This document shows, piece after piece, positions 8,671 to 27,947 of a stretch of 64,000 bases of DNA (positions are counted from its first letter, which is position 1; each line of letters starts with the position of its first letter). The position numbers and the translations under genes were made by a program. Source of the DNA: Nitrosopumilaceae archaeon (GTDB lineage: Archaea; Thermoproteota; Nitrososphaeria; Nitrososphaerales; Nitrosopumilaceae); contig CBDCCK010000002.1 in assembly GCA_965214835.1 (NCBI GenBank), positions 2,112,001 to 2,176,000 on the forward strand, read 5' to 3'. The notes under the pieces are model-generated. The model worked only from the letters and a program-made list of their open reading frames with translations. It ran no database searches and was not told the origin of the DNA.

Positions 8671-8787
8671 CCGTCTTCCCAAATGCAGCTGACTCATGGC
8701 AGAGTAGGCAGCCGTATGCGGATCTGCAGGCGGCCTAGCTTTAGCTGTCAATCTTAATCGCTTTATGGGGAACTTTTGAAAAGACTG
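8671..8787. mobile_element. MITE family C (TIR approx. CAGTCTTCCCAGAAGT), copy 1
   Basis: Ends CCGTCTTCCCAAATG / ACTTTTGAAAAGACTG; internal GACTCATGG and GCGGATCTGCAGGC shared with copies at 25440-25549 and 42976-43082. Confidence 0.7.
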
Positions 8788-13530: not shown

Positions 13531-13715
13531 TCTTTTTGAGTAAGGGTTTGCCCCTAGGCGATACTATCTGCAGATCCCTTGATCACATGGCCCCGTGCCA
13601 TGTCCTCGGGAGGGGCAGACTCGCCTTTCTGACTGATCCGCAAGAATCTCAAAATATTTGGTGGATTTGTCGTAAAAATCAGGGAGGCGAATCAACGGCA
13701 TGCGGGTGTGGCCTA

Positions 13716-14076
13716 GCTTGTTGCATAACCCTGCCTAAAATTTTGAGCTTGGCCAAAAATCACCAAGATGATCAACGGATCCTGACCGAGAGGGTAAAGG
13801 ATCATGGGAGCGGCATACATGGTACTTGGCATATACGGACAATGCGTTATACGTAGAGGGTGCAGACCTGGTCGTCGAGATCGTAATATCGGTCATAGAG
13901 CGCATGTTTGGCTAGGACGTGATGGGCCACAAGTGGTCCAACATGGTGCATGAGATAAAGTTGGGGGTGTGGATGTACAACAAGTGGGTTGTGGAGGCGG
14001 TTGGCCGTGTGGGAACCGCGCACCGGTTATGATCCGGGCGGATCGACTGGGCTCTAGTCGGGGTTGTGCAGCAGAC
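13716..14076 (+). mobile_element. internally deleted IS5-family element
   Basis: Ends GCTTGTTGCATAAC / GTTGTGCAGCAGAC flanked by TA; 5' part homologous to 18253-18380; C-terminal transposase remnant KWSNMVHEIKLGVWMYN. Confidence 0.7.
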
Positions 14077-14121
14077 TAGGAAATCGGAAAGGTAATAAAT
14101 GCCCTCTGATACGAGGTGGAT

Positions 14122-15420
14122 ATGGCAGATAAGGAGCACCTGAACTTAATCGTAACAGGTCATATTGATAATGGAAAGTCCACAACCATGGGACACTTTT
14201 TAATGGATCTCGGCGTTGTTGATGAGAGAACTATTGCAGCCCACGCCGCCGAATCCGAGAAGACCGGAAAGGGCGACACGTTCAAGTACGCCTGGGTCAT
14301 GGATAACATCAAAGATGAGAGGGAAAGGGGCATTACCATCGATCTCGCATTTCAAAAGTTCGAGACACCAAAGTACTTTTTCACGCTGATCGATGCCCCA
14401 GGCCACAGGGACTTTATCAAGAACATGATTACCGGCGCATCTGAGGCAGATGCCGCAGTCTTGGTACTATCTGCAAAGGAGGGCGAGACTGACACGGCAG
14501 TTGCAACGGGCGGGCAGGCAAGAGAGCACGCATTCCTATTAAAGACGCTGGGCGTGAACCAAATCATCGTTGCAATCAACAAGATGGATGACAGCAACTA
14601 TTCCGAGGACGCGTTCAAGGCGGCCAAGGAAAAGGGCGAAAAGCTCATCAAGTCAGTCGGCTACAAGCCTGACAACGTACCGTTCATTCCTGTCTCCGGG
14701 TGGAAGGGCGACAACCTGGTAAAAAGGTCAGAAAACATGTCGTGGTATTCCGGTAAGACACTGCTTGAGGCATTTGATGACTTTGCCGTGGCAGAAAAAC
14801 CGGTTGGAAAGCCGCTGCGCGTCCCAATCCAGGATGTCTACACCATTACCGGCGTGGGTACCGTGCCTGTGGGTAGGGTAGAGACTGGCACGATGAAGCC
14901 CAATGACAAAATCGTCGTAATGCCTTCGGGCGCAGTAGGCGAGATAAAGTCAATAGAGACACACCACACACAGCTGCCGTCTGCCTCGGCAGGCGACAAC
15001 ATCGGCTTTAACCTCCGGGGCATCGAAAAGAAGGACATCAAGAGGGGAGACGTCATGGGGAGTCCCAACGATCCGCCAAGGGTGGCAAAAGAGTTCAAGG
15101 CCCAGATTATCGTCATCCACCATCCGACGGCAATCGCGCCCGGATACACACCGGTAATGCACTGCCACACTGCGCAGGTGGCAGCGACCGTCACGGAGTT
15201 TATCTCAAAGATCAACCCGGCAACCGGCGCAACCGACGAAGAAAGCCCGAAATTCCTCAAGGTCGGAGACTCTGCAATCGTAAAGATCAGGCCGGTAAGA
15301 CCGACTCCTATTGAAACGTTCCAAGACTATCCGGAAATGGGAAGATTCGCACTCAGGGATATGGGTGCCACAATCGCAGCCGGAGTCGTCAAGGAAATCA
15401 CCGAAGAGCACAAGCCATAG
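14122..15420 (+). CDS. tuf: translation elongation factor EF-1alpha
   Basis: GHIDNGKST, DAPGHRDF, NKMD; SD GAGGTG upstream. Confidence 0.98.
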   Translation: MADKEHLNLIVTGHIDNGKSTTMGHFLMDLGVVDERTIAAHAAESEKTGKGDTFKYAWVMDNIKDERERGITIDLAFQKFETPKYFFTLIDAPGHRDFIKNMITGASEADAAVLVLSAKEGETDTAVATGGQAREHAFLLKTLGVNQIIVAINKMDDSNYSEDAFKAAKEKGEKLIKSVGYKPDNVPFIPVSGWKGDNLVKRSENMSWYSGKTLLEAFDDFAVAEKPVGKPLRVPIQDVYTITGVGTVPVGRVETGTMKPNDKIVVMPSGAVGEIKSIETHHTQLPSASAGDNIGFNLRGIEKKDIKRGDVMGSPNDPPRVAKEFKAQIIVIHHPTAIAPGYTPVMHCHTAQVAATVTEFISKINPATGATDEESPKFLKVGDSAIVKIRPVRPTPIETFQDYPEMGRFALRDMGATIAAGVVKEITEEHKP

Positions 15421-15955: not shown

Positions 15956-16153
15956 CTATCTGTCCTTTTTGTAGCTGTGCTCCCTTTGCAGGTGCGCCCT
16001 CATATCCTCCATGCTTGAGAAGTTTTTGGCACACTCCTTGCAGTCATACGGGCTGTCCTTAAAGTGGACCGCTTGCTTGTGATGCATCAGCTCCTCCTGC
16101 CGTGAGAACCCTGACGCGCACAAGCCACACCGGTGTTTTTTGAAGAGGCCCAT
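15956..16153 (-). CDS. double C2H2 zinc-finger protein
   Basis: Two CxxC-12-HxxxxH fingers. Confidence 0.85.
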   Translation of the reverse strand: MGLFKKHRCGLCASGFSRQEELMHHKQAVHFKDSPYDCKECAKNFSSMEDMRAHLQREHSYKKDR

Positions 16154-16156
16154 TCC

Positions 16157-16567
16157 CTATCCGTACTTTGCCTTTTGCTCGTCCCAGCACCTTCTGCAGA
16201 GCTGGCCTTCGATCTTCCACTTTGGCTTGGGGTTGTACCGTATCAGCCCCATCTTGCCGCTGCATATTGTGCAAAAGTTCCTTTTCTCGTTGAATCCTGA
16301 CTCTTTTTTATCAAAACACTCCTTGCAGAGTAGCCCATCCATGTCCCACTGCCACCTTGGCTCCCACATGTCTGAGATCTTCTTGGTGGTGCCGCAGACA
16401 ATACAGGGCTGCCTGACCTTGGCCTCGTAGAACTCGTTTGACTTGTCCATGTGGCAGTCCCCGCAGAGCCTTCCATTGATGTTCCACTCCCGCTTGGGCT
16501 TGTGCTTGTGAGTGAGCTCCTTGCTGCATACTGCGCAATATTCCACCTTTTTGCCAAACAGGCCCAT
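16157..16567 (-). CDS. multi-CxxC zinc-finger protein (three repeats)
   Basis: Three C..C ... P..W...G.LC..C modules; start MGLFGKK. Confidence 0.8.
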   Translation of the reverse strand: MGLFGKKVEYCAVCSKELTHKHKPKREWNINGRLCGDCHMDKSNEFYEAKVRQPCIVCGTTKKISDMWEPRWQWDMDGLLCKECFDKKESGFNEKRNFCTICSGKMGLIRYNPKPKWKIEGQLCRRCWDEQKAKYG

Positions 16568-16629
16568 GATATCACTGGCTGGTATTTGATTAAAAATGAT
16601 TCGAGGCAAAAACGGGCGGGATTTGGCGA

Positions 16630-16755
16630 CTAGGATTCGTCAAGAATCTTCTCGATTGCCTGGCTTGCGTTTAGCATGCCGTGCTCCCTTGCAAATTCCT
16701 CGATGATCCTGTACTGCTCGGTTGTAAAGCAGATCGGCATTGAGCGCTTGTCCAT
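16630..16755 (-). CDS. small ribbon-helix-helix (CopG-like) protein, 41 aa, below ORF-track cutoff
   Basis: MDKRSMPICFTTEQYRIIEEFAREHGMLNASQAIEKILDES; TATA-like TTAAATA upstream. Confidence 0.6.
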   Translation of the reverse strand: MDKRSMPICFTTEQYRIIEEFAREHGMLNASQAIEKILDES

Positions 16756-16808
16756 GATGGTAGCAGGGGCTGTTATTTAATATGCCTTCCGATGCTCGTA
16801 GCCTGTTG

Positions 16809-16950
16809 AACACATGATAAAAACGCCCCCGCCGTAGCCAGGGTGATGGATCAACCCCTCGTTATGCATGTGCTTCGCGCACTACCTGTTGAATGGGGAT
16901 ATCCGAGCTGCTGTGTTCCTGTGCTACGCGCACTGATGGATGAATGCAGC
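16809..16950 (+). ncRNA. predicted IS110 bridge RNA (copy 1); transcript ends unknown
   Basis: Two structurally parallel stem/internal-loop/hairpin units; loop 1 matches the target flanks, loop 2 matches the circle junction. Confidence 0.8.
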
Positions 16951-16995
16951 TTCTGATCTGTCAAACCATATCCGAAAGGAGGTGAAAGAAAAGGA

Positions 16996-18073
16996 TTGAG
17001 AAGCATAGGAATAGACATTGGAAAGAGAAAATGCGCAGTGTGCGTCATCGACGCCAAGGGACACGTGCTAGAGGAGGGCTCGTATAACAACACGTACAAG
17101 GAGGCATCAAAGCTTGCTGCACGACTGAAAAAAGAGTACAAAAAGTGCCAGGCCGCGTGCGAGTCAACGGGCAACATGTGGCTAAAGACGTTCAGGGCGT
17201 TTGAGGATCAGCATATCCCCATACTGCTTGCAAACACCCTCAAGATGAAGATAGTATCAGAGACCAGCGCAAAGACCGACCCGATAGACGCAAGGAAGAT
17301 AGCCGACACGCTCAGGGCCGGAATGATACCACGATGCTACGTGGCATCAGCAGAGCTGAGGGATGTCAGGGAGCTGATGAGGTACAGGATACGGATGGTA
17401 CAGGAGAGGACCGCAGTCATAAACGGGCTGCACAGCTTGGCTTGACAAGTACGACATAGCCATAGATGCATCCACGATGTACTCCAAGAAGGCCATACGG
17501 AAGATCTCCGATACCAGGCTGAACATGCCAAACGATGACAGGATACTGGCAAGCTGCACTAGGAGGATTGCATCAGTTACAGAGGAGATAGACCAAGCAG
17601 GGGAGGACATAGGAAGACAGGCAGGATCGAACGAGGATGCCAAGCTGCTGTTGAGCATGACGGGAATAGACACCTTTGCAGCAATGCTGCTGATAGCAGA
17701 GATCGGCGACATAACCAGATTTCCATCGCCGAACCAGCTTGTGTCCTGGGCCGGCATGTGTCCCCGGGTGTACCAGTCGGGGGATCGCGAGTACTACGGC
17801 CACATGAAAAAGGATGCAAACCGCAGGATCAACTGGCTGATGATCCAGATAGTCAACGTCGCCGTACAGCACGACGACAGGATGAAAGAGTTCTACGAGA
17901 GGGTCCGCAAAAGGAACGGCAACAACCACGTCATAGCGATAACGCATGTTGCAAACAAGATGCTCAGGATAATCTGGCACATGCTGACGACAAAGACTGC
18001 GTATTCATCGCGCAATGCTGTCCTGTACGACAAGAAGATCAAGAGGGTGACAGAACTGGCGGGAACGGCATAG
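16996..18073 (+). pseudogene. IS110 DEDD recombinase, 1-bp frameshift at ~17440
   Basis: GIDIGK, CESTG, KTDPIDA (DEDD); GMCPRVYQSG C-terminal domain; SD GGAGGTG. Confidence 0.92.
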
Positions 18074-18254
18074 GATTACCACCTTCCTCCCCCACCCACC
18101 CACCCAATGATCCGCCCGCACCCTGGCAGGTGCGACAGGACTGGCTCGTGCGTATTGCTAGCGTTAGCTATAAAGCACGGCCCGGCCGACTAGGCACGGA
18201 TCAGAAGACGAAAGGAACGTCGCCATGTTACTGGCGGGCGTTTTACCATGGATG

Positions 18255-18640
18255 CATAACTCTGCCTAAAATTTGAAACTTGACCAAAAATCACCCAAAT
18301 TATCAACGGATCCTGACCGAAAAAGTAATGGAATATGAGGATGCCACGTATGGTACTTGACACACACGGACAATGCCAAGTACGGAGGGGGGTAGGCCTA
18401 GTAGTCAAGTACGATCCAGGCTGGGAGAATGATCTCAAGAATGCCAACTGCCACAAGGAGGGTGCCCCGTTCCTGTACGCAGATGGCATGATAATGGTCG
18501 CGGCGGCCCTCAGAACCGCATTCATGATGCCGTACAGGCAGCTGTCAGGCATGATCAGGGAAATGCTAAGGGGCATGGACTCGTCGTGCTATGCCACGAT
18601 ATTTGGGAGGATGCAAAAGCTTGACGTCGACATTGCATAG
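18255..18640 (+). pseudogene. IS5-family element left end and transposase N-terminal remnant
   Basis: KEGAPFLYADG..PYRQLSG..YATIFGRMQKL; end homologous to 13716. Confidence 0.75.
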
Positions 18641-18699
18641 TCAACACATAAAAAAAACGGATTGTTTTGACAACTATTTTTGATCCAAAGATCTAAGAC

Positions 18700-19100
18700 T
18701 AGGGGAGCCATACATATGTGCATCAAAGCGCAAGCAGAACGAGTTCAAGGAGGCAGCGCAAAAGCTGATCAGGGAAAATACGGCACAAGGGTATACGGTA
18801 CTGGCAGAAGACGAGTCCTCCGTGCAGAAGACCTCGAACAGCCCCAAGCGTGGGTGGACAAAGCGCGGCATGAGCGTCACGGTGCCCTCGTCCCTGTCAC
18901 GGCCGCGCCGGTACATGTTTGGCGTACTGTCAGCTAGTAGACTTTATGCGTAATCGGTTCAGATCTAGGATTATTAGGAACAAATTCATCTCATTCAGGT
19001 CGATTACGCATAAAGTCTAGTGTATTCTACTTTATGTTCTATGACAAGACCAGCACCGACAGCTTTTGCGACTTTTTTGGCAAATGCACACAAGGTCTGA
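18700..19100 (+). pseudogene. IS630-family transposase fragment interrupted by a MITE
   Basis: TVLAEDES..RGW..YMFGVLSAS|VFYFMFYDKT..F; frame is restored when the MITE plus one AGT is removed. Confidence 0.7.
18939..19018. mobile_element. 80-bp MITE (family D)
   Basis: Perfect 18-bp TIR AGACTTTATGCGTAATCG, 3-bp TSD AGT; solo ends at 21018 and 25610-25625. Confidence 0.88.
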
Positions 19101-19228
19101 TCTACAAGCTTGGCGGTCATTTTACAGGAAGTTTTTTTGGATAGCCCCGGCTGATTTCTGGAAAAATTCCGGATAATGCAAGCTATACTTTTCTGACTGC
19201 AAAGATTTTACGTGGGCAGATCCCAGTC

Positions 19229-19741
19229 ATGCACATGAAAAAGCGCCAGATTGTAGTCATCGGGCACAACGACAACGGCTGTACGCCCGAGCACGAGAGG
19301 ATTGCATATGATACCGGTGTCGAGGTTGCAAAATCCGGCTCGGTCCTAGTTACCGGAGGCCTGGGAGGAGTGATGCGCGCCTCCTGCCATGGTGCATCTG
19401 ATGCAGGGGGCATAACCGTGGGCATACTGCCCCAGGATGATCCCGGCTTTGCCAACGAGTACTGCCAGATTGTAATACCAAGCGGCATGGGGCTGACCCG
19501 GGACTTTCTCAACGCGCTTTCGGCAGACGGCATCATAATCATCGGCGGCGGCTCTGGAACCCTCTCTGAGGTGTGTGCCGCGTACATGCACAAAAAGCCG
19601 ATGGTCGCAATCAGAAACACCGGCGGAACCGCCGACAGGTATGCTGACAGCTATGTCGATCACCGGCAGAATGTGAAGATCATAGGTGTGAGTACGCCAA
19701 AGGAGGCAGTGGAAAAAATCCTGGAACTGATCACTTCATAG
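19229..19741 (+). CDS. TIGR00725 / LOG-like Rossmann-fold protein
   Basis: VTGGLGGVM, VGILP, GGGSGTLSE. Confidence 0.88.
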   Translation: MHMKKRQIVVIGHNDNGCTPEHERIAYDTGVEVAKSGSVLVTGGLGGVMRASCHGASDAGGITVGILPQDDPGFANEYCQIVIPSGMGLTRDFLNALSADGIIIIGGGSGTLSEVCAAYMHKKPMVAIRNTGGTADRYADSYVDHRQNVKIIGVSTPKEAVEKILELITS

Positions 19742-20867
19742 ACTCTAGTAGCGGATCCGGCCTGTAGAACTCGCCGCCTTCCTGTGCAAGCCTGTCCAGC
19801 TCTGCAACGATTCTGCCCATCCCGATCTCCCTTGCCGTCTCAAACAGCGGCCTCTTGAGGCCCAGCCCCAGCCTTGCGGCCATTTCGAGCTCCTCAATGT
19901 CGCTTGCCTTGTTTGTGACCAGCCATGCTGCATTGTTGAGAACATTTGCCACCAGCGGGATGGGGTCGAACTTTCCTGCCAGCTCCTCTGAGAGCCCCAC
20001 CCTCTCATACTTGTCATCAGAGTACCTGTAGAACCCCTCGCCTGATTTCTGGCCCAGCCTCCCATCTTCGAACATCTTCCCGATTGTAGGATGCGGCAGG
20101 ACAACCTTCTTGTCCCTGAGATGCATCTCGGTAGTCGCCTTGTGGATGACGTCCATGCCGGTAAAGTCTGCCAGCTCAAAAACCCCCATCGGGAACCCCA
20201 TCTTGAACTTTACCGCAGAGTCAATCTCCTCCAGGGAGGCGCCCGTCCTGTCCATTGCATAGCATGCCTCGTGGACCATGGGGATAAACAGCCTGTTGAT
20301 TATGAATCCGGGAACGTCCCGCCTGCACAGGACTCCTTGCTTCCCTACGGACTCTACGTACTCCCTTGTCAGCCTGAGCGTCTCCTGGGAGGTCTTTTGG
20401 CCCGGGATGATCTCGACTAGCTTCATCAACTGCGGAGGATTGAAAAAGTGGATTCCGATGAATTTGTCCGGGCGCGAGATCGACTCTGCAATCTCGGTAA
20501 TCGGCAGCGTGCTTGTGTTTGATGCAAAGATCACCCCTTCATCGGATGCCTCGTCTAGCTCCGCATAGACCTTTTTTTTCAGATCCATGATTTCAGGAAC
20601 CACCTCGATTACCATCTCTGTGTCCCTGACTGCCTCCTTGAGATCCACGACCGGCGTTATTCTTCCAAATATTGCGTCTGCCTCGTCCTTTGGGATTTTT
20701 TCCTTTGAGACCATCTTGTCTAGGCTCCACCTGATCTTCTCCATCGCCTTATCCAGGAACTCCTGCCGGATGTCCCGCAGTACCACGTCGTATCCTGCAG
20801 CAGCTGAGACCTGCGCTATTCCGTGTCCCATGACCCCCGAGCCTAGAACCGTGATGCTCTTTACCAT
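19731..20867 (-). CDS. 3-hydroxyacyl-CoA (3-hydroxybutyryl-CoA) dehydrogenase
   Basis: GSGVMGHGIA, ASNTSTL, GIHFFNP, PGFIINR, GFPMG. Confidence 0.93.
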   Translation of the reverse strand: MVKSITVLGSGVMGHGIAQVSAAAGYDVVLRDIRQEFLDKAMEKIRWSLDKMVSKEKIPKDEADAIFGRITPVVDLKEAVRDTEMVIEVVPEIMDLKKKVYAELDEASDEGVIFASNTSTLPITEIAESISRPDKFIGIHFFNPPQLMKLVEIIPGQKTSQETLRLTREYVESVGKQGVLCRRDVPGFIINRLFIPMVHEACYAMDRTGASLEEIDSAVKFKMGFPMGVFELADFTGMDVIHKATTEMHLRDKKVVLPHPTIGKMFEDGRLGQKSGEGFYRYSDDKYERVGLSEELAGKFDPIPLVANVLNNAAWLVTNKASDIEELEMAARLGLGLKRPLFETAREIGMGRIVAELDRLAQEGGEFYRPDPLLESMK

Positions 20868-21164
20868 AAGTGAGGGATCCTGCCATCCCTTATTATCCTA
20901 TTTGACCGGCGATCCTTGACGTGTTGTCTGAAAACCATGTTCGTTAGTAACTGATGTCCGTCTACATACATTTTGGATCACTTTTTCTGACTGCTTTTGT
21001 GAACAGGCTAGGACACTAGACCTTATGCGTAATCGGTTAAAATCAAAAAAGTCAGGCAGCTTTTACGTCATTTTTGACAAATACACAAAGTATGATGGTA
21101 TCAGAAGGCGGTTGATCCGTTTGCATTCTTGCCAGTTTGACCCAGCTAGGATGCATTTTGCTTG

Positions 21165-21254
21165 TACGAGGCCACCTCTCATTGAGCAAATAGGCGTGAA
21201 TTCGCATGCTGCTGTGATTTTCATGCCTAGCCAGCAATGGGACGTGACCACGTA
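21165..21254. mobile_element. ~90-bp MITE family A (TA-bounded)
   Basis: Ends TACGAGGCCAC / GTGACCACGTA; homologous to 23210, 42741, 48648, 53450. Confidence 0.8.
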
Positions 21255-21336
21255 TGCTGTCCCGTCCGGTTCCTATCCTATAAGCAACCACGTTTAATCC
21301 GCATGGTTTTTAACGGATTTTCAAGCCTAGCTTGGC

Positions 21337-21501
21337 ATGGGGCTGTTTGGACGCAAAAAGGACGACAAGAATACAAAGTGCAAGGAATGTGGGCTGGATC
21401 TGCCCACCCCCGAAAGGCTTGAAAGGCACATGAAAAAGGCACACGGAAACATTCCTGAGAAAAAGTTTGATCCAAACCGTGCCGGGGATGGTACCTGGTA
21501 A
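21337..21501 (+). CDS. small C2H2 zinc-finger protein, 54 aa, below ORF-track cutoff
   Basis: MGLFGRKK...CKECGLDLPTPERLERHMKKAH; stop overlaps next ATG (TAATG). Confidence 0.8.
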   Translation: MGLFGRKKDDKNTKCKECGLDLPTPERLERHMKKAHGNIPEKKFDPNRAGDGTW

Positions 21502-21779
21502 TGGATGAGCTAAGCGACGGGAAAAAACACACCCTGATCTTCGGGGGCGCCCTGGTCATTGCGGGCCTAGTTATAGCAACCGTGGTGTTTCCCTTCTGGA
21601 ACCTGATACGCGAGGATGTCTTTGAGGAGGCCGAGATTCTAAAAAACGACGGGGGGATCTGCTATGTGGAGACCTCCGACAAGATCCCAAAGACCATTGA
21701 GGACTGTACCCACATGCCCGGAGACATCGTGGTGGTAAAATACGGCCGGGGACTCGCATGGGCGACCATCGAGCCCTGA
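21501..21779 (+). CDS. hypothetical membrane-anchored protein
   Basis: One TM helix; coupled to upstream ORF. Confidence 0.7.
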   Translation: MDELSDGKKHTLIFGGALVIAGLVIATVVFPFWNLIREDVFEEAEILKNDGGICYVETSDKIPKTIEDCTHMPGDIVVVKYGRGLAWATIEP

Positions 21780-21811
21780 ATGCTTAATACCGGACGGCCC
21801 GATCCACCGTC

Positions 21812-22219
21812 ATGGACTGCATATTTTGCAGGATTGCAGGCGGCAAGATTCCTGCAAGGATACTGTACGAATCCAACAGCGTTATGGCGTTTTTGGACGC
21901 GTTTCCACTGGCAAGGGGGCACTCCCTTGTAATTCCCAGGCGGCATTTTGAGAGGATCCAGGACATGCCTCCTGATGTAAGCTCTGCAGTCTTTGAAGTC
22001 GTCCGCAGGTTGGCATCCGGGGTTGATGCCGTTGCCGGCTCCACGCTGGTCGCTGTCCATAACGGACGGGGAAGCGGCCAGGAGGTTCCTCACGTCCACG
22101 TACACCTGATTCCCAGGGGACCTGATGATGGTGCAGGCACGGTGCACACCATGTTCAAAAACAGCGTCGAGCTAGATGACTCTGACCTTGCCTGCATCCA
22201 GGATGCCCTGAGGCTCTAG
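21812..22219 (+). CDS. HIT family hydrolase
   Basis: DCIFC, GHSLVIP, HVHVH. Confidence 0.95.
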   Translation: MDCIFCRIAGGKIPARILYESNSVMAFLDAFPLARGHSLVIPRRHFERIQDMPPDVSSAVFEVVRRLASGVDAVAGSTLVAVHNGRGSGQEVPHVHVHLIPRGPDDGAGTVHTMFKNSVELDDSDLACIQDALRL

Positions 22220-22881
22220 TGCGGGTATAGACGTTCCCTGGTGTCGCTGTTTTTGACGTTTATGGCTCTGGTCGGGCATGTCTCTGCTGCATTCATGATC
22301 TTGTTGATGCCCGCGCCCCGTCTGTTGATTACCCTGGATTTCGGGTTGGTTTGGGACTTTTTATCGATGTGAAAGACCTCTGGCGCGATGATCTCGCAGC
22401 TGCAGCACCCTATGCACAGGCTGGGATCCACGTCCACCAGCAGATCCGGCTGCTCCTTGGGCTCCTTTGTCTTGTCAAACTCCCCGTTTTGCCCGTCTGC
22501 ATTTACGGTCCTGTCGTACTCATCCCAGAACTTTCTTTCGTATTCTTTCCACCACTCGGGGTCTCCCTCCTCGAACCCCCGTGTGAACTTGCCCCAGTCC
22601 TGCTCCGGGGGATCCCCTCTTGGCGGTGCACCCCACGGTGACTGCGGCTTTGGCCTCCGGCGCGTCTTTTCTGTAGCGGTCGCCTTTTTTCCATTTTTAT
22701 GAAAGTCCTTTAGGACGTTGTAGGCCTCGGTGACCCTCTTGAACTTCATGCCGTCCTTTGACTCCTTGTTTTTATCCGGATGTGACTCTAGGGCCAGCCT
22801 CCTGTATGCGTCTCTGATTTCATCTAGGGTCGCGTCGCTTTGCAGCTGCAACGTCTGGTATGCCTGACTCGTGTTCACCAC
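22216..22881 (-). CDS. DnaJ-ferredoxin fusion (DnaJ-Fer)
   Basis: J-domain HPD plus CIGCCSC...CP ferredoxin. Confidence 0.92.
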   Translation of the reverse strand: MVNTSQAYQTLQLQSDATLDEIRDAYRRLALESHPDKNKESKDGMKFKRVTEAYNVLKDFHKNGKKATATEKTRRRPKPQSPWGAPPRGDPPEQDWGKFTRGFEEGDPEWWKEYERKFWDEYDRTVNADGQNGEFDKTKEPKEQPDLLVDVDPSLCIGCCSCEIIAPEVFHIDKKSQTNPKSRVINRRGAGINKIMNAAETCPTRAINVKNSDTRERLYPH

Positions 22882-23103
22882 CTTTCCAGTCTTCTTACTG
22901 TTTTAAAAACAATGTCTATTCTACGACCTCCTTGCCCTCGACTATCCACGCCAGCTTGACTATGCATAGAAGCCTTGTCTCTGGCCACCGTAAGGCACAC
23001 AAGGCGGCACCTAGTGCCTTCTATCCTACCGTTCTTGCCGTCATGTAGGACTCGGCCGTGCTGGTGCCCGGCCTCCTGTGTCATACCTTGTGGGTCATCT
23101 TCG

Positions 23104-23200
23104 GTAAGAGCTTGCACGCTCCAAAAGACACAGCGTGATGGGCAGGTGATCAAGGGTTTTGTCTTGGCATCAAAAACTATTGGGCTGCTCACCTCCATAG
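23104..23200. mobile_element. degenerate IS66-derived MITE
   Basis: Starts GTAAGAG; internal GGTGATCAAGG like 49179 and 58260; right end eroded. Confidence 0.45.
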
Positions 23201-23209
23201 ATCTAGCTG

Positions 23210-23298
23210 TACGAGGTCACCTACCCCACAAATCAGGCACGAATTGGCATGTACAATTGTGATTTCCATGCCTAGCCAGCAAGGGACGTGACCACATA
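23210..23298. mobile_element. MITE family A
   Basis: TACGAGGTCAC ... GTGACCACATA. Confidence 0.82.
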
Positions 23299-23322
23299 CA
23301 TCTAGCTGATCAGAAAAACCAC

Positions 23323-23409
23323 ACAACATCAGATCCTCAACTCTCTAGGCGTAAAACATTCATCCAAATTTCCTGTTCACGCCTGATTTTACGGATGATC
23401 TGACGTTGT
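23323..23409. mobile_element. putative MITE
   Basis: TIR ACAACATCAGATC / GATCTGACGTTGT (12/13). Confidence 0.55.
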
Positions 23410-23476
23410 ACAATCATTATAAGATACTAGCCTTCTGCGTCCTCAAACCCCCCAATACCGCCTATTGACAGCCTTT

Positions 23477-23935
23477 TCATTTTATGATGCCTGTCGCTCT
23501 GCCCTTGAAGTCAGACTCATACCATGTCGTCTTGTACTCTGCGTTTTTTCTAGGCGGGATGTTGACTGCAATGTGCGCAAAGGTCTTCCGGGTGCTCGTA
23601 GAGCCATGCGTGTGCAGCTGCCTTGCGGGGATGTATGCTGTGTCTCCTTTTTTTAGCGAGATTTTCTGCGTCCTTTTGATGCCAAAGCTGTCATTTTTAC
23701 CCCCATGCCTTTTGAACAGCTCCAGGCTACCTGGGCCCTCTGTTACAATGAGAACTTGGCCACCGTTGTGCCAGTGAAGCTTGGTCCTTGAACCCTTTTC
23801 AAAGTAAACGTGGTACATCTTATGCTCGGTGATTTTCAGCGCCTCTCCGATATCCCTCATGCGTGTCTTTGCAGTAAACCAGTCCGGATTGATTCTTCTC
23901 TGACTTCCTCCTGCGTAAATATTGATTTTGTCCAT
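23477..23935 (-). CDS. cupin domain protein
   Basis: HWHNGGQVLIVTEG and IPARQLHTHG cupin motifs. Confidence 0.9.
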   Translation of the reverse strand: MDKINIYAGGSQRRINPDWFTAKTRMRDIGEALKITEHKMYHVYFEKGSRTKLHWHNGGQVLIVTEGPGSLELFKRHGGKNDSFGIKRTQKISLKKGDTAYIPARQLHTHGSTSTRKTFAHIAVNIPPRKNAEYKTTWYESDFKGRATGIIK

Positions 23936-24121
23936 AATCTAAGCACATGCATGTATGTGATATACTTAGCTATATACTCGGTTTTCCCATCTATGTTAAA
24001 ACGCCCGGGCCCTTTAGCGGTGGCAAGCTGTGTCTCTCTGATCCACGCCTAGTTTGATATGGGCCGCCTTATGGCTTACGCTGGGTACAGGGGTCTGTTC
24101 CCCGTGTGGGAATGGTGCGCA

Positions 24122-25253
24122 TTACTTTGCTGTCTTCTTCCCAGCCTCGGATGGCGGCTCGGATGCTGCTGCAGTAGTAACAGCGGCAGTAGCAGCAGCC
24201 TCTGCCCTGTCCATCTTGAGGCCGTACGTCCTGGGATCGTGTCCGGAGTATGGCGTCTTTGTCACGAGCATGGACCAGATGATCCTGATCATCTTGGTTG
24301 CCACGTACGTCCTGGCCACCATGGACCTTGCGCTGCTCCTCTTCTTGGATCCTGCATGGATCCTTCCCATCCTCTCGTCGTATATGGCAGCCGTCCGCGC
24401 AGCCTGAAGCATCGCCCGGTTGCACCTGTGGTTGGATGTCTTTCTCATCTTGCCGCAGTACTCCCTGTCGCCGGACTGGTGGACGGTCGGACACATGCCG
24501 AACCACGCAACAAGCTTGCCCGGGGTCTTGAATCTGCCAGTATCTCCGATCTCGGAGACCAGCAGCATGGCCGCGAGTCGATCCCCGGAATGCTCATCGG
24601 GATCCTCGCATCCTCGCTGGCGCCGGCCTGTGCGGCTATCTTCGTCTCGATGTCTGCAATCTCCTCCGTGGGCTGCCTGACCCTTCTGGTATGCGCGCCA
24701 AGAACCGCCCCGTCGTTGGGATCATCAGGTGCCATGTCTGTCAGCTGCCTGAGTCCCTTGTCGGAGTACGCGTGTGACGAGTCGATCCTCTCGTAATACC
24801 TGTCCGGGAGGCCGTGGATCCGGTTGATCACGGCCGTCCTAGCCTGCACGGGGCCGATCCTGCAGCGCATCAGCTCCATGACGCTCCAGAGTCCGGGCGG
24901 TGCCACGTAGCACTTGGGAACCATTCCGGCCCTCAGGGCGTTTGTGAGCCTTCTTGCGTCGATTGGATCAGTCTTTACGTCAATGTCCGAGATTATCCGC
25001 ATCCTGTAGGTGTTGGCAAGCTTGACGGGTATTCCTGCGGACTAGAATGCCTCGTAGGTCTTGAGCCACATGTTGCCTGCGGACTCGCAGACGGCCTGGC
25101 AGTTCCTTCCGTAATTGAGCCTTGTCTTCCTGGCAAACAGGCCCGCCCTCCTTGGAGGTGTTCTCGTATGCCGTCTCTTCTTGGATCCTCTTTTTGTCGT
25201 CCATAATGCACGCTATGCGTTTTCTCTTTCCAATGTCTATTCCTATGCTGCAT
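24122..25253 (-). pseudogene. IS110 recombinase, multiple frameshifts/stops
   Basis: SIGIDIGK, KTDPIDA, GMCPTVHQSGD distributed over several frames. Confidence 0.9.
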
Positions 25254-25291
25254 TACATCTTTTCTCGTCTTCCTTTTTTTGTGGTTCAGAG

Positions 25292-25437
25292 GCTGCACAC
25301 GTCCATCAGCACGCCGTGGTGCACGAACACTGCAGCTCGGAATTACCGCATTCAGAAGTCAGCGCGCGGGGTGCATGGGAAGACAGCGGTTGATCCACGT
25401 CACCACTGCTACGGGCCCGGGCGTTTTAACCCGTGTT
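25292..25437 (-). ncRNA. predicted IS110 bridge RNA (copy 2) with a different target guide
   Basis: Same scaffold as copy 1; guides GTCTTCCCA and ACTTCTG match own flanks and the host MITE TIR. Confidence 0.75.
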
Positions 25438-25439
25438 CA

Positions 25440-25549
25440 AAAGTTCCCCACAAGACGGCTGCAAACTCGAAACGGTTCAAGCAAGGCTGCCTACAGATCC
25501 GCACACATCCATCTGCACCGCCACGAGTCAGTTACTTCTGGGAGGACTG
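25440..25549. mobile_element. MITE family C, copy 2 (remaining part of its left TIR at 23979-23989)
   Basis: Right end ACTTCTGGGAGGACTG; internal CTACAGATCCGCA and CCACGAGTCA. Confidence 0.7.
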
Positions 25550-26051
25550 TAGCTTGGTCTGATCAACGCATCTGCGTTTGGAAAACCTTGCGGAATTTTT
25601 AACCACGGTCGATTACGCAAAGTCTACTTTTCACTTAGCTGACTATAGCGTAGCACGCAGCACGGCTATGCCAGCTCCCACCATTAGGACATCCACGGCA
25701 CTTTCCATCATTTTGTCTACTGTGACTTGATTTAAGGTGTAACTCTTGCCGTTTTTCTGTTGTATGATCAAACGAAAGCGGTTCCGGAATTGGTGGGATC
25801 ATGCGACAGGCAAGCACGTACTAGACTTTTGCAGATGTAATTCGTGCCTAAAATCGTAAATCACCCAAGCCCGATCTGCTGCTGATGTGTGATACCACGC
25901 CTCCTTGGTAGCCATGCATGAAAATCAGTTCCATGCAGCTCGTACCTGGTTGCTAGGTGGAATGAGGCCTAGTGCATTTTGGTTAGGAAATTTAGCATTT
26001 TGTCTAAACAAGCAAAGCTGATCCCTATAAGATCACTTTTCACTTAAAACT

Positions 26052-26225
26052 ATGTCCTTCCAAGAACGGCAGCAGATGAGGAGTATAGACGAGCTAATCC
26101 TCCGGGCCACCCCAGAGGAACTCAAGAAAATCCAGGAGCTAGACGTCTCTACCCAGCTTGACGGCAGGTCGTTTTATGATACGTGTGTAGAGTCAAGGGA
26201 ATCCCCACTTGCCAGATCCAAATAG
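26052..26225 (+). CDS. small hypothetical protein, 57 aa, below ORF-track cutoff
   Basis: MSFQERQQMRSIDELILRATPEELKKIQELD...; TATA-like TATAA about 25 bp upstream. Confidence 0.55.
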   Translation: MSFQERQQMRSIDELILRATPEELKKIQELDVSTQLDGRSFYDTCVESRESPLARSK

Positions 26226-26265
26226 CCATTCTTAGTTTAAATGAGGGAATTTCAGCTTCTTGCAT

Positions 26266-27327
26266 ATGTCTGCCACAAAGGCCGTCAAAAAGACTGCCAA
26301 AAAGACGGCAAAAGGCACCGCCAAAAAGACGGCTTCAAAAAGAGTATCCAAGAAGACCAGAGTCGTCTGCATCTCCCACAAGGAGGATGCAGACGGAATC
26401 AGCTCAGCGGCGCTGATCCGCCAGGCGTTTGGTGGCGACTCTATCCTAGTTGACTATCCGGGACAGATGGATGCCATAGAGCAGGTATCTGGAGATGAGA
26501 GGCTAAAGGCACTGTACATCTGTGATCTGGGCCTCAGCAAAAAGAACCAGGACAGGTTCGTCGAGATCATGGCCGGACTTCGCAAGAGGCGCGTTGCAGT
26601 CACATACATTGACCACCATGACATTGATCCTGCAATCGCCAAGCAGCTAGGTGAGATCAAGGTCAGGATGATCCACGACACCGGCGAGTGCACCGCAGTT
26701 CAGGTGTACGACTCGTACAAGTCAAAGCTGAACGAGCACGCCTCGTTTGTTGCAGCCTGTGCCGCAATTACCGACTACATGGAGGACAGGCCAGTTGGCG
26801 CTAGGTTGCTGCAGGTATATGACAGGCAGTTTGCCTTGATCAACGCCACCGTCCTCACATACAACATCGTGGGGCATCAAAAGGACGAGGACTATCTGAT
26901 GTACCTGGTGGGGGAGCTGGCCGACTCTAAATACCCGCACCAGATTCCAAACTCCTTTGAGTTTGCACAAGTCCAGGTGGAGAGACTGGCAGAGGTCATC
27001 GCCAAGGTCAAAAAGGGGATGAAGAGGATGTCGAACCTGGGCCACATGGAGATTCTGGATGCCGGGGCAAGTGGCGCCGTAAACTTTGTGCTCGGCCTGT
27101 CCGGCAAGGACGTCGGGGTCGCCTACAAGGAAAGGGTTGATCACGGAATCTATGCCGTCTCTGTGCGCGGCTCCAAAGGCTGCAGGATCCACCTTGGAAA
27201 GATCGTCAATGTCCTGGCTGCCGATCTGGGTGGCTCCGGCGGCGGCCACGACAGGGCCTGCGGCGCAGTCATCCCAAAGCCCAAAATCAAGACATTCCTG
27301 AGGGAGTTTAACAAAAAGCTGGGATAG
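26266..27327 (+). CDS. DHH/DHHA1 phosphoesterase (RecJ-like) with K/A/T-rich N-terminal tail
   Basis: DADG, ICDLG, IDHH, GGGHDRACG. Confidence 0.9.
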   Translation: MSATKAVKKTAKKTAKGTAKKTASKRVSKKTRVVCISHKEDADGISSAALIRQAFGGDSILVDYPGQMDAIEQVSGDERLKALYICDLGLSKKNQDRFVEIMAGLRKRRVAVTYIDHHDIDPAIAKQLGEIKVRMIHDTGECTAVQVYDSYKSKLNEHASFVAACAAITDYMEDRPVGARLLQVYDRQFALINATVLTYNIVGHQKDEDYLMYLVGELADSKYPHQIPNSFEFAQVQVERLAEVIAKVKKGMKRMSNLGHMEILDAGASGAVNFVLGLSGKDVGVAYKERVDHGIYAVSVRGSKGCRIHLGKIVNVLAADLGGSGGGHDRACGAVIPKPKIKTFLREFNKKLG

Positions 27328-27396
27328 GTGCACTTAATCTGGGGCGCTTTTTTGTTCGGGACTGCAACTGACGCATCGTATGGGGTTTATGCCCTT

Positions 27397-27495
27397 GGAC
27401 AGGCATGCGCTAACCTGCGTGCAAATGTAATCATATTTGGGATTAAAAGTGGGATCAGAGGAATTGCAGGACAGGCATGCGCTAACCTGCGTGCA
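27397..27495. repeat. two perfect 27-bp direct repeats, 45-bp spacer
   Basis: GGACAGGCATGCGCTAACCTGCGTGCA at 27397 and 27469. Confidence 0.9.
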
Positions 27496-27578
27496 GCTGC
27501 AATCTTTATGTCTGGTCAGTAGGGATGTGGCCTCATACTTGGATAGGCTCTTACCTACAGGCCACGAATAGTCTGTTG

Positions 27579-27718
27579 AGTACATGATAAAAACACCCCA
27601 CTGTAGTCAGGGTGCTGGATCAGCCCCCACCATGCACGTGCTTCGCGCACTATCTGTTGAATGGGGCAGTCAGAGCTGCTGTGTTACTGTGCTTTACGTA
27701 CTGGTAGATGACTGCAGC
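27579..27718 (+). ncRNA. predicted bridge RNA of the mini-IS110
   Basis: Both loops and closing stems retained; TCTGTTG and TAGATG match its own flank and junction. Confidence 0.65.
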
Positions 27719-27947
27719 TTTTGGTACATCAAGACTAGGCGGAAAGAAACCGTCTGCGATGACTCGCCTCCTGTCCCACCACCCATCCAATGATCTGGGA
27801 GGATATGACATGACCGCACTGGGACAAGGCAGGTGCTATTGCATCGTGCAGCCAGCTAGCTGTAAAGTGGGTCACGATCAAGTAGGCATGGATCAGAGGA
27901 AACTAGGAGCATCGTCGTTTCTGCGATGGGTGTTTTTAACATAGATG
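27579..27947 (+). mobile_element. non-autonomous mini-IS110 (both non-coding ends, no recombinase)
   Basis: Collinear with the 5' and 3' non-coding regions of copy 1; TG core at both ends; sub-terminal IR ATGATAAAAACACCC / GGGTGTTTTTAACAT. Confidence 0.9.

Follow-up and report, generated by a model that had tools for sequence, protein, structure and literature searches.

A decayed IS110-family element in a Nitrosopumilaceae archaeon and the match of its predicted bridge RNA to a MITE end

Anatomy of copy 2 and its predicted bridge RNA

The 64,000-nucleotide stretch of a Nitrosopumilaceae archaeon analyzed here (the window, to which positions refer unless given as genome or contig C2 positions) contains an IS110-family insertion sequence at 23988..25437 on the minus strand. 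This element, copy 2, is 1450 bp long with its TG core counted once, and belongs to a lineage that we call B. It lies wholly within a MITE (a miniature transposable element with inverted repeats) that now spans 23979-25549, with the MITE body and far end at 25438..25549 and the near end at 23979-23987. A sister element, copy 1 of lineage A1, occupies 16809..18254 on the plus strand. The genome comprises 3.22 Mb in two contigs, of which contig C2 makes up 3.21 Mb.

The recombinase gene of copy 2 survives as a pseudogene at 24122..25249 on the minus strand, in which tblastn reveals two frameshifts and one in-frame TAG. Aligned to the intact 378-aa protein of the sister lineage A2, its pieces cover amino acids 22-69 in frame 3, 68-245 in frame 1 with the stop, and 246-369 in frame 3, at 42-54% identity over residues 22-369. 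The N-terminal DEDD (RuvC-like) and C-terminal Tnp (Transposase_20) domains that characterize the IS110 family are found in these pieces and the sister protein considered together. The pieces score 56.3 bits on Pfam PF02371 (cut-off 21.3) and 19.4 bits on PF01548, under its cut-off of 29, and the intact protein scores 234 bits on the NCBIfam family NF033542, "IS110 family RNA-guided transposase" (cut-off 140). The intact protein also matches the solved IS621 and ISCro4 recombinases at E ∼1e-9, a remote similarity. Copy 2 does not have the open frame of an active element, and the other full B copy in the genome carries one frameshift.

The TG core precedes the left end of copy 2 and forms the last two bases of its right end, and there is no target-site duplication. 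Across the genome the core is present at 19 of the 23 left and 21 of the 22 right junctions. Copy 2 also has a sub-terminal inverted repeat, perfect over 18 bp, that lies 7 bases in from each end, with its left arm at 25413..25430 and its right arm at 23995..24012. Sub-terminal inverted repeats are described as 2-3 bp long in the IS110 group and 7-17 bp in the IS1111 group (Durrant et al., 2024; PMC11208160, available in part). Copy 2 therefore departs from the IS110 group in repeat length, which is IS1111-like, and agrees with it in the position of the RNA. The left arm holds an A/T-rich, TATA-like box ∼25 nt upstream of the closing stem of that RNA, which may be an archaeal TATA box.

Between the left arm and the pseudogene, at 25279..25401 on the minus strand, lies the predicted bridge RNA of copy 2, a match of 108 bits to a covariance model built in this analysis. 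The predicted RNA (∼120 nt, from the 5′ non-coding end of the element) is organized as a closing stem around two stem-loops with internal loops. The structure was drawn manually and comprises five helices: the closing stem, the target stem with its inner hairpin, and the donor stem with its inner hairpin. Relative to other B copies, copy 2 has lost two pairs, one each from the closing stem and the target hairpin.

Comparison among homologs supports this fold. Over 20 sequences from this genome and those of three relatives (G002, G004, and G010), 98% of the positions expected to pair do so, with 6 pairs changed on both sides, against 25-57% in controls in which the pairing was slid. For 13 elements from relatives, 96% are paired and 18 of 25 pairs have changed on both sides (slid controls, 34-44%), on an alignment that was itself fitted to the model. 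Covariation thus provides the structured left-end RNA with two internal loops that is expected of a bridge RNA, and its transcription is predicted. As a separate observation, a 12-nt stretch at 18196-18207, ∼50 nt from the right end of copy 1, is 92% complementary to the 3′ strand of the closing stem (16950-16961), and the right ends of lineage B and G010 contain similar words.

The target loop of copy 2 is closed by a 4-bp stem, and an internal hairpin parts its two segments. The 5′ segment (25375..25384, minus strand) is the right target guide as defined by Durrant et al. and is complementary to the top strand of the core and right half. Read as 25384-25375, it corresponds in reverse complement to the element's last three bases and the right flank, with one mismatch in copy 2. 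The 3′ segment (25353..25359, minus strand), which is the left target guide, has the same sequence as the top strand of the left half and core; 25359-25353 repeats the left flank together with the TG in front of the element, again with one mismatch in copy 2. The flanks themselves, both read on the minus strand, are the left target half with the core at 25438..25444 and the right target half at 23981..23987. Rejoined (25444-25438 plus 23987-23981), they agree with the guide-predicted 14-mer at 12 of 14 positions, and the consensus guides of lineage B match the target exactly.

The donor loop shows the corresponding relation to the ends of the element, so that both loops have the complementarity that defines a bridge RNA. 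Its 5′ segment (25323..25330, minus strand) is complementary to the core and the first bases of the left end, matching at 7 of 8 positions with a constant mismatch at the first core base (judged by eye). Its 3′ segment (25300..25306, minus strand) should repeat the final 7 bases of the right end, as it does at 7/7 positions in 13 of 14 paired elements. Across lineages A and B and the genomes G004 and G010, changes in this segment are accompanied by changes in the right end. The original prediction, which was made from the letters of this DNA, had reported the target loop, the 12/14 flanks, a 13/14 match at the opposite MITE end, a second MITE copy, and the donor loop, and all are found where it placed them. 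It had also likened the donor loop of copy 2 (25330-25323, 25306-25300) to that of copy 1, and indeed only 2 of 17 donor-guide positions differ.

Guides, flanks, and target sites across lineages

Blastn together with the covariance model of the RNA part locates 24 scaffold loci in this genome; the model has matches in 9 of 141 genomes of the order, namely this one and 8 of the 140 others. Lineage A1 has 8 copies with ∼98% mutual identity, among them copy 1, and lineage A2 has 3 copies, 86-92% identical to A1. Lineage B contributes four left ends, including copy 2, and a truncated fifth at genome 1751777-1751863. Nine further loci are short elements and fragments without a recombinase gene.

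Guides and flanks agree throughout this set. We scored five variable positions per left half and six flank bases per right half. For left guides, 95 of 115 variable positions over 23 left ends agree with the element's own flank, with a shuffled mean of 60.8 and none of 20000 shuffles reaching 95. For right guides the count is 69 of 84 positions in the 14 elements with both ends, for which the shuffled mean is 44.6 and one of 20000 shuffles reaches 69. A genome-wide table of this kind had been proposed in the original prediction, and both halves stand above their shuffles.

The agreement is specific to lineage. At the left flanks of the four B elements the B guide fits 19 of 20 positions, the A1 guide 9 of 20, and the A2 guide 1 of 20; at eight B right junctions the corresponding values are 38, 9, and 16 of 48. 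Conversely, A1 flanks fit their own guides at 38/40 (left) and 48/48 (right) positions and the B guides at 17/40 and 8/48. Within lineage B, the left guide equals the left flank exactly at all three other full left ends, the truncated fifth junction contains the left half with one mismatch, and the right guide is the exact reverse complement of the six flank bases scored at five right junctions other than that of copy 2. These values bear out the claim that the guide set of copy 2 differs from that of copy 1 and matches another target, the terminal inverted repeat of a MITE. Guides of copy 1 at the ends of this MITE family had been named as a result that would speak against the reading; with A1 flanks fitting the B guides so poorly, that result did not appear. 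The internal support that had been claimed for a bridge RNA is real, and it comes from this lineage-wise matching of guides and flanks.

The same rule extends to other genomes. Among 13 elements from 8 other genomes, 9 of which took no part in model building, every element has its own 7-nt left guide (7 exact, 6 with one mismatch) 25-40 nt upstream of the RNA and directly before a left-end-like start. As a control, the guides of other elements match anywhere in a 100-nt window in 23 of 156 trials. The left end of lineage B itself was absent from 25 relatives in a DNA search; two weak 70% matches in G002 look A-like.

The 14-mer predicted by the B guides is the terminal inverted repeat of the MITE, which has C-A-G ends. 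On contig C2, counting both strands, it occurs 57 times exactly, 106 times with at most one mismatch, and 172 times with at most two, where base composition predicts 0.023 exact occurrences. The repeat family is small, multicopy, and non-coding with terminal inverted repeats, as expected of a MITE: the end word forms 64 inverted pairs, whose modal length is 121 bp (exactly 121 bp in 25), and 56 copies are 110-130 bp long. No target-site duplication of the MITE was obvious among 40 copies inspected. The opposite end of the MITE that hosts copy 2 holds an unoccupied target-like 14-mer with one mismatch (25534..25547, plus strand; genome position 2137534). A degenerate second MITE copy lies at 8671..8787, with the 9-letter end word at 8673 and the 14-mer, with three mismatches, at 8772-8785.

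Copy 2 entered its MITE 9 bases from the tip, so that its right flank holds almost no MITE. Its 105-nt left flank is 87.6% identical to the best of 56 MITE copies and matches 53 of the 56. Copy 2 and the B copy at genome 1315096 both have 105-108 nt of MITE body as their left flank, but the best MITE matches of these flanks differ, and by eye the two hosts belong to different MITE sub-types. Since their best matches differ, the two MITE-hosted B copies are independent insertions.

The A lineages point elsewhere. The 13-mer predicted for A2 has 23 exact copies and forms the terminal repeat of a 1.38-kb element that encodes a 415-aa DDE_Tnp_1 transposase (for example L049, C2 1763089-1764465). 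The A1 13-mer has 4 exact copies and 26 with one mismatch, and forms the end of a ∼90-bp repeat and of larger repeats. Because the sites predicted for B, A2, and A1 are different repeat ends, each lineage is, as read from these sequences, aimed at the terminus of a different resident mobile element. Two observations concern the same repeats: one of the 1.38-kb DDE_Tnp_1 elements interrupts a B copy at genome 2329749-2331112, and an A1-type site with one mismatch lies unoccupied at a repeat-element end near 13717 (13700-13730).

Guided insertion and the alternatives to it

We consider it likely, with a probability of about 85%, that copy 2 is an inactive element of lineage B whose bridge RNA, encoded in its left end, guided its insertion into the terminal inverted repeat of the MITE. 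The reading is built on what can be seen directly, namely the anatomy, the fold by covariation, the matching of guides to flanks across lineages and genomes, and the census of sites. From these we infer that the RNA is produced, that it pairs with DNA, and where its promoter lies. An active element would make a ∼120-nt bridge RNA from its left end, with the start probably set by the TATA-like box. The first internal loop would pair with both halves of the 14-bp target, and the second would do the same with the ends of the element itself, joined in a circle. Strand exchange by the DEDD/Tnp recombinase would then take place at the TG core, leaving TG on both sides and no target duplication. With the ends of a ∼121-bp MITE as its target, lineage B would have over 100 nearly identical places to insert that are not in host genes. 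Copy 2 would have entered a MITE end with two mismatches to its guides, and would have decayed thereafter.

Several results weigh against this interpretation, and some concern copy 2 itself. There is no intact recombinase gene among the B copies of the genome, and copy 2, with its broken gene, is unable to encode a working recombinase. Only 5 of 7 positions of its donor 3′ segment agree with its own right end. The broken gene, the lost stem pairs, and this donor fit are the reasons for regarding copy 2 as decayed, and it is an inactive relic of lineage B, not a working member. Its rejoined flanks also carry two mismatches to the guides, at the fifth base of the left half (guide C, flank T) and at the fourth flank base after the core on the right (G implied by the guide, A in the flank). 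At both, the guide implies a G:C pair where the flank has A:T. These mismatches probably predate the arrival of the element, because an unoccupied MITE end of the same sub-type at genome 2417824 has the same two variants. For the bridge RNAs characterized by Durrant et al. (PMC11208160, available in part), natural guides and targets agree with 0-2 mismatches, and off-target insertions occur at sites with 1-2 mismatches.

Other adverse results concern the RNA and the right junctions. Folding energies of single sequences are not better than those of shuffles (z = 0.19, −1.53, −0.14, and −1.02), which is why the comparative structure was used for the fold, and cmscan of 16000-26000 gave no match to an Rfam 15 family at E up to 1. 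The right guide of the relatives' elements was found downstream, with one mismatch, in only 5 of 13 cases against 23 of 156 in the control, and most of these loci have too little downstream DNA. The expectation that B guides would be found at their predicted site holds for 6 of 8 right junctions; the other two, B 2667290 (0/6) and the solo B end at 1849662 (3/6), lack the predicted half-site. The right flank of B 2667290 is unique sequence, and a later insertion cannot explain this exception. Two of three A2 right junctions, at 1517769 and 1300846 (2/6 each), and a solo A end at 662064 (2/6) are also exceptions. The flanks of 1300846 and 662064 are repeats that start at the junction, which suggests that another element abuts there. 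Several short elements fit their own left flank poorly, at 2-3 of 5 positions.

The alternative that survives best, which we nevertheless consider very unlikely, is that the matching segments act as DNA. They could be an internal, attP-like copy of the attachment site, matched by DNA-DNA pairing or read by the recombinase, and the apparent fold could be protein-binding DNA. Sequence identity by itself does not distinguish RNA-DNA from DNA-DNA pairing, and two truncated copies end exactly at guide-coding DNA, which indicates that guide DNA can join in rearrangements. The compensatory changes that keep the five helices paired, on both sides in 18 of 25 pairs, are instead a signature of RNA structure and not of a protein-binding site. 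The target halves, moreover, are copied in opposite senses, one as an identity and the other as a reverse complement, and overlap on the core, as they do for the bridge RNA of Durrant et al. (PMC11208160). The recombinase belongs to the family for which dependence on RNA was demonstrated in vitro in the same work. In G004, the sole core position at which the right guide departs from identity would form a G-U pair in RNA.

A second alternative, which we rate marginally lower still, is that copy 2 inherited its site, the MITE and the element having been copied as a unit by segmental duplication or by transposition of the MITE with its cargo. Copy 2 does lie inside a single MITE with both MITE ends kept, and the resulting 1.57-kb composite could in principle move. 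The other B junctions speak against such descent: one is in a different MITE sub-type, two share only the terminal ∼10 bases with the MITE, and the right flanks beyond the MITE end are unique sequence. Blastn of the genome found no second locus with the same MITE sub-type and copy 2, and a first insertion into a MITE end would in any case still require a guide-matched event. Assembled contigs from four runs of one study, compared over 16500-27900, favor neither reading: they break at repeat borders, and none spans an empty copy 2 site; the loose ends at 25441 are other MITE copies.

That the match of guide and MITE is a coincidence of chance or low complexity has a negligible probability: the abundance of the target makes a MITE end nearby likely for any element, but copy 2 is inserted at the exact core position within the 14-mer, shuffled guides almost never reach the observed matching, and the same rule holds in lineages with unrelated targets and in the 8 other genomes.

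Retargeting, related elements, and known systems

The original prediction held that target guides had been swapped between copies 1 and 2 with the scaffold and donor kept, and in this form the claim is not supported for the pair. Copy 1, whose bridge RNA lies at 16843-16963 with guides at 16861-16869 (right) and 16885-16891 (left), matches its own flanks fully, at 5/5 left and 6/6 right variable positions. The two copies are 65% identical as DNA, and a comparison of their RNAs shows differences at 10 of 13 target-guide positions but also at 28 of 92 non-guide positions. With this identity and these non-guide differences, copies 1 and 2 are old, separate sister lineages and not a single element freshly swapped. 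On the same kind of comparison, A1 against A2 shows retargeting cleanly, the scaffold and donor being retained: 9 of 13 target-guide positions differ but only 2 of 88 other positions and none of the 17 donor-guide positions (Fisher p = 1.7e-8). A1 and one of the short elements differ in a similar way (11/13 target-guide, 5/88 other, and 1/17 donor-guide positions). The A1 copy at C2 1835893 has two C-to-T changes in its left guide and a flank that keeps the A1 site (3/5). The short element at 639991 has the same altered left guide and lies at a matching altered site (5/5).

One short relative lies within the window at 27579..27947 on the plus strand. It is 369 bp long and non-autonomous, with a bridge-RNA gene at 27612-27731 and no recombinase gene, and it is inserted in the end of another small repeat, with which its left guide agrees at 5/5 positions. 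Its sub-terminal repeat (27584-27598 and 27928-27942) is 15 bp long at 93% identity. Elements of ∼370-400 bp also occur near C2 10110, 639991, 655667, 2955986, and 3124520. All of them lack a recombinase gene; the left end is A-like and contains an entire bridge-RNA gene, the right end is B-like, and the ∼200 bp in between are unrelated. The target guides vary among these elements, and those of 2955986 and 2928844 point to the terminus of yet another repeat.

The recombinase of the A family is unusual in another respect. The linker that joins the RuvC-like to the Tnp domain contains the same additional base in 10 of 11 A-family copies (8 A1 and 2 A2; in copy 1 within 17420-17490), and this splits the gene into frames of 149-168 aa and 198 aa. 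Copies that share it are up to 12% diverged and carry two different guide sets. A fused recombinase is found within the A family of this genome only in the copy at genome 513383-514516, the locus of the intact recombinase, and also in the relatives G004 and G010. Between lineages that both have the shift, dN/dS of the two split frames is 0.21-0.31. These values in both frames, despite the shared shift, suggest that the A-family recombinase is a working split protein or one recoded by +1 frameshifting.

A broader idea, which we offer tentatively and think somewhat unlikely to be correct as a whole, is that the RNA rather than the protein defines the mobile lineages. At least 4-5 guide sets, each for a different transposon or MITE terminus, would be carried on full and ∼370-400-bp elements that share a trans-acting recombinase, naturally split into two frames under purifying selection. 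The shifted lineage would have diverged by up to 12%, changed its guides, and multiplied.

Rearranged copies were also found. At L051 (C2 1751700-1752000, minus strand), a B left end within a MITE stops exactly after the bases that code for the left guide and is followed by the MITE tip. The arrangement looks like an aberrant excision in which guide-coding DNA, being identical to the left target half, may have served as a false left junction. At L052 (C2 685600-687060) and at C2 504067-504218, the scaffold breaks off immediately behind the 3′ donor-guide segment, a mimic of the right end. What follows both cut scaffolds is an IS630-like element or the end of one (DDE_3, 81.5 bits; HTH_33), and in L052 a B right end follows 1.2 kb later. 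Elsewhere in the window, 14116-15420 encodes an aEF-1-alpha-type elongation factor, which marks the genome as archaeal, and 18930-19025 and 23230-23400 show very high summed contig depth and many joints, as further high-copy repeats.

The closest described system is IS621 and the IS110 group (Durrant et al., 2024; PMC11208160, available in part), with which the elements described here share a DEDD and Tnp recombinase, a left-end RNA with target and donor loops, the absence of target duplication, and repeated natural targets. According to the same source, IS621 differs in having a CT core where these elements have TG, an 11-bp target where theirs is 14 bp (7 + 7, each side including the core once), and a right guide of 4 nt, extendable to 7, where theirs is 9-10 nt. 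Relative to the IS110 group as described there, the combination of an 18-bp, IS1111-like sub-terminal inverted repeat with a left-end RNA is also distinct. Further differences from IS621 are the closing stem, which here joins both stem-loops into one ∼120-nt unit, and the archaeal host. Both loops of the RNA described here have the "right" guide on the 5′ side, and the loops of IS621 have the opposite guide order.

Two other systems resemble these elements in their choice of target. IS4321 and IS5075, as far as the available accounts go, are likewise IS110-family elements with sub-terminal inverted repeats that target the terminal inverted repeat of another transposon. They differ in that their guide RNA is in the right end (PMC11208160) and not the left, and in that their targets are the 38-bp ends of large bacterial transposons and not a 121-bp archaeal MITE. 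ISPpu9 and ISPpu10 of Pseudomonas putida (PMC12288879, available in part) are IS110-family elements in an abundant short repeat (REP), with a small-RNA module that occurs with and without the transposase gene and that is proposed to exploit the transposase in trans. According to that source, transposition in this system does not require the ssr9 RNA, which is encoded downstream of the transposase gene; the short elements described here instead keep a 5′ bridge-RNA gene with guide sets of their own. The available portions of the literature count 662 archaeal homologs of IS110 recombinases. Those portions of the literature on bridge RNA, IS110, and archaea yielded no description of the guide RNAs of archaeal IS110 elements.

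The bridge-RNA mechanism, the tracking of natural targets by guides, and the targeting of REP and transposon terminal repeats by the IS110 family are, in the sources available to us, already published, and the published mechanism gains nothing new in principle from this locus. The elements described here add new archaeal members to this known kind, with several unusual side features. Judged from their sequences, the small ∼120-nt scaffold, the TG core, and the long right guide, together with the intact 378-aa recombinase, may be candidates for programmable recombination. The locus and its genome form a compact natural record of change in the target of a bridge RNA, in which sibling lineages each fit a different repeat end and the A1/A2 pair differs almost solely in its target guides.

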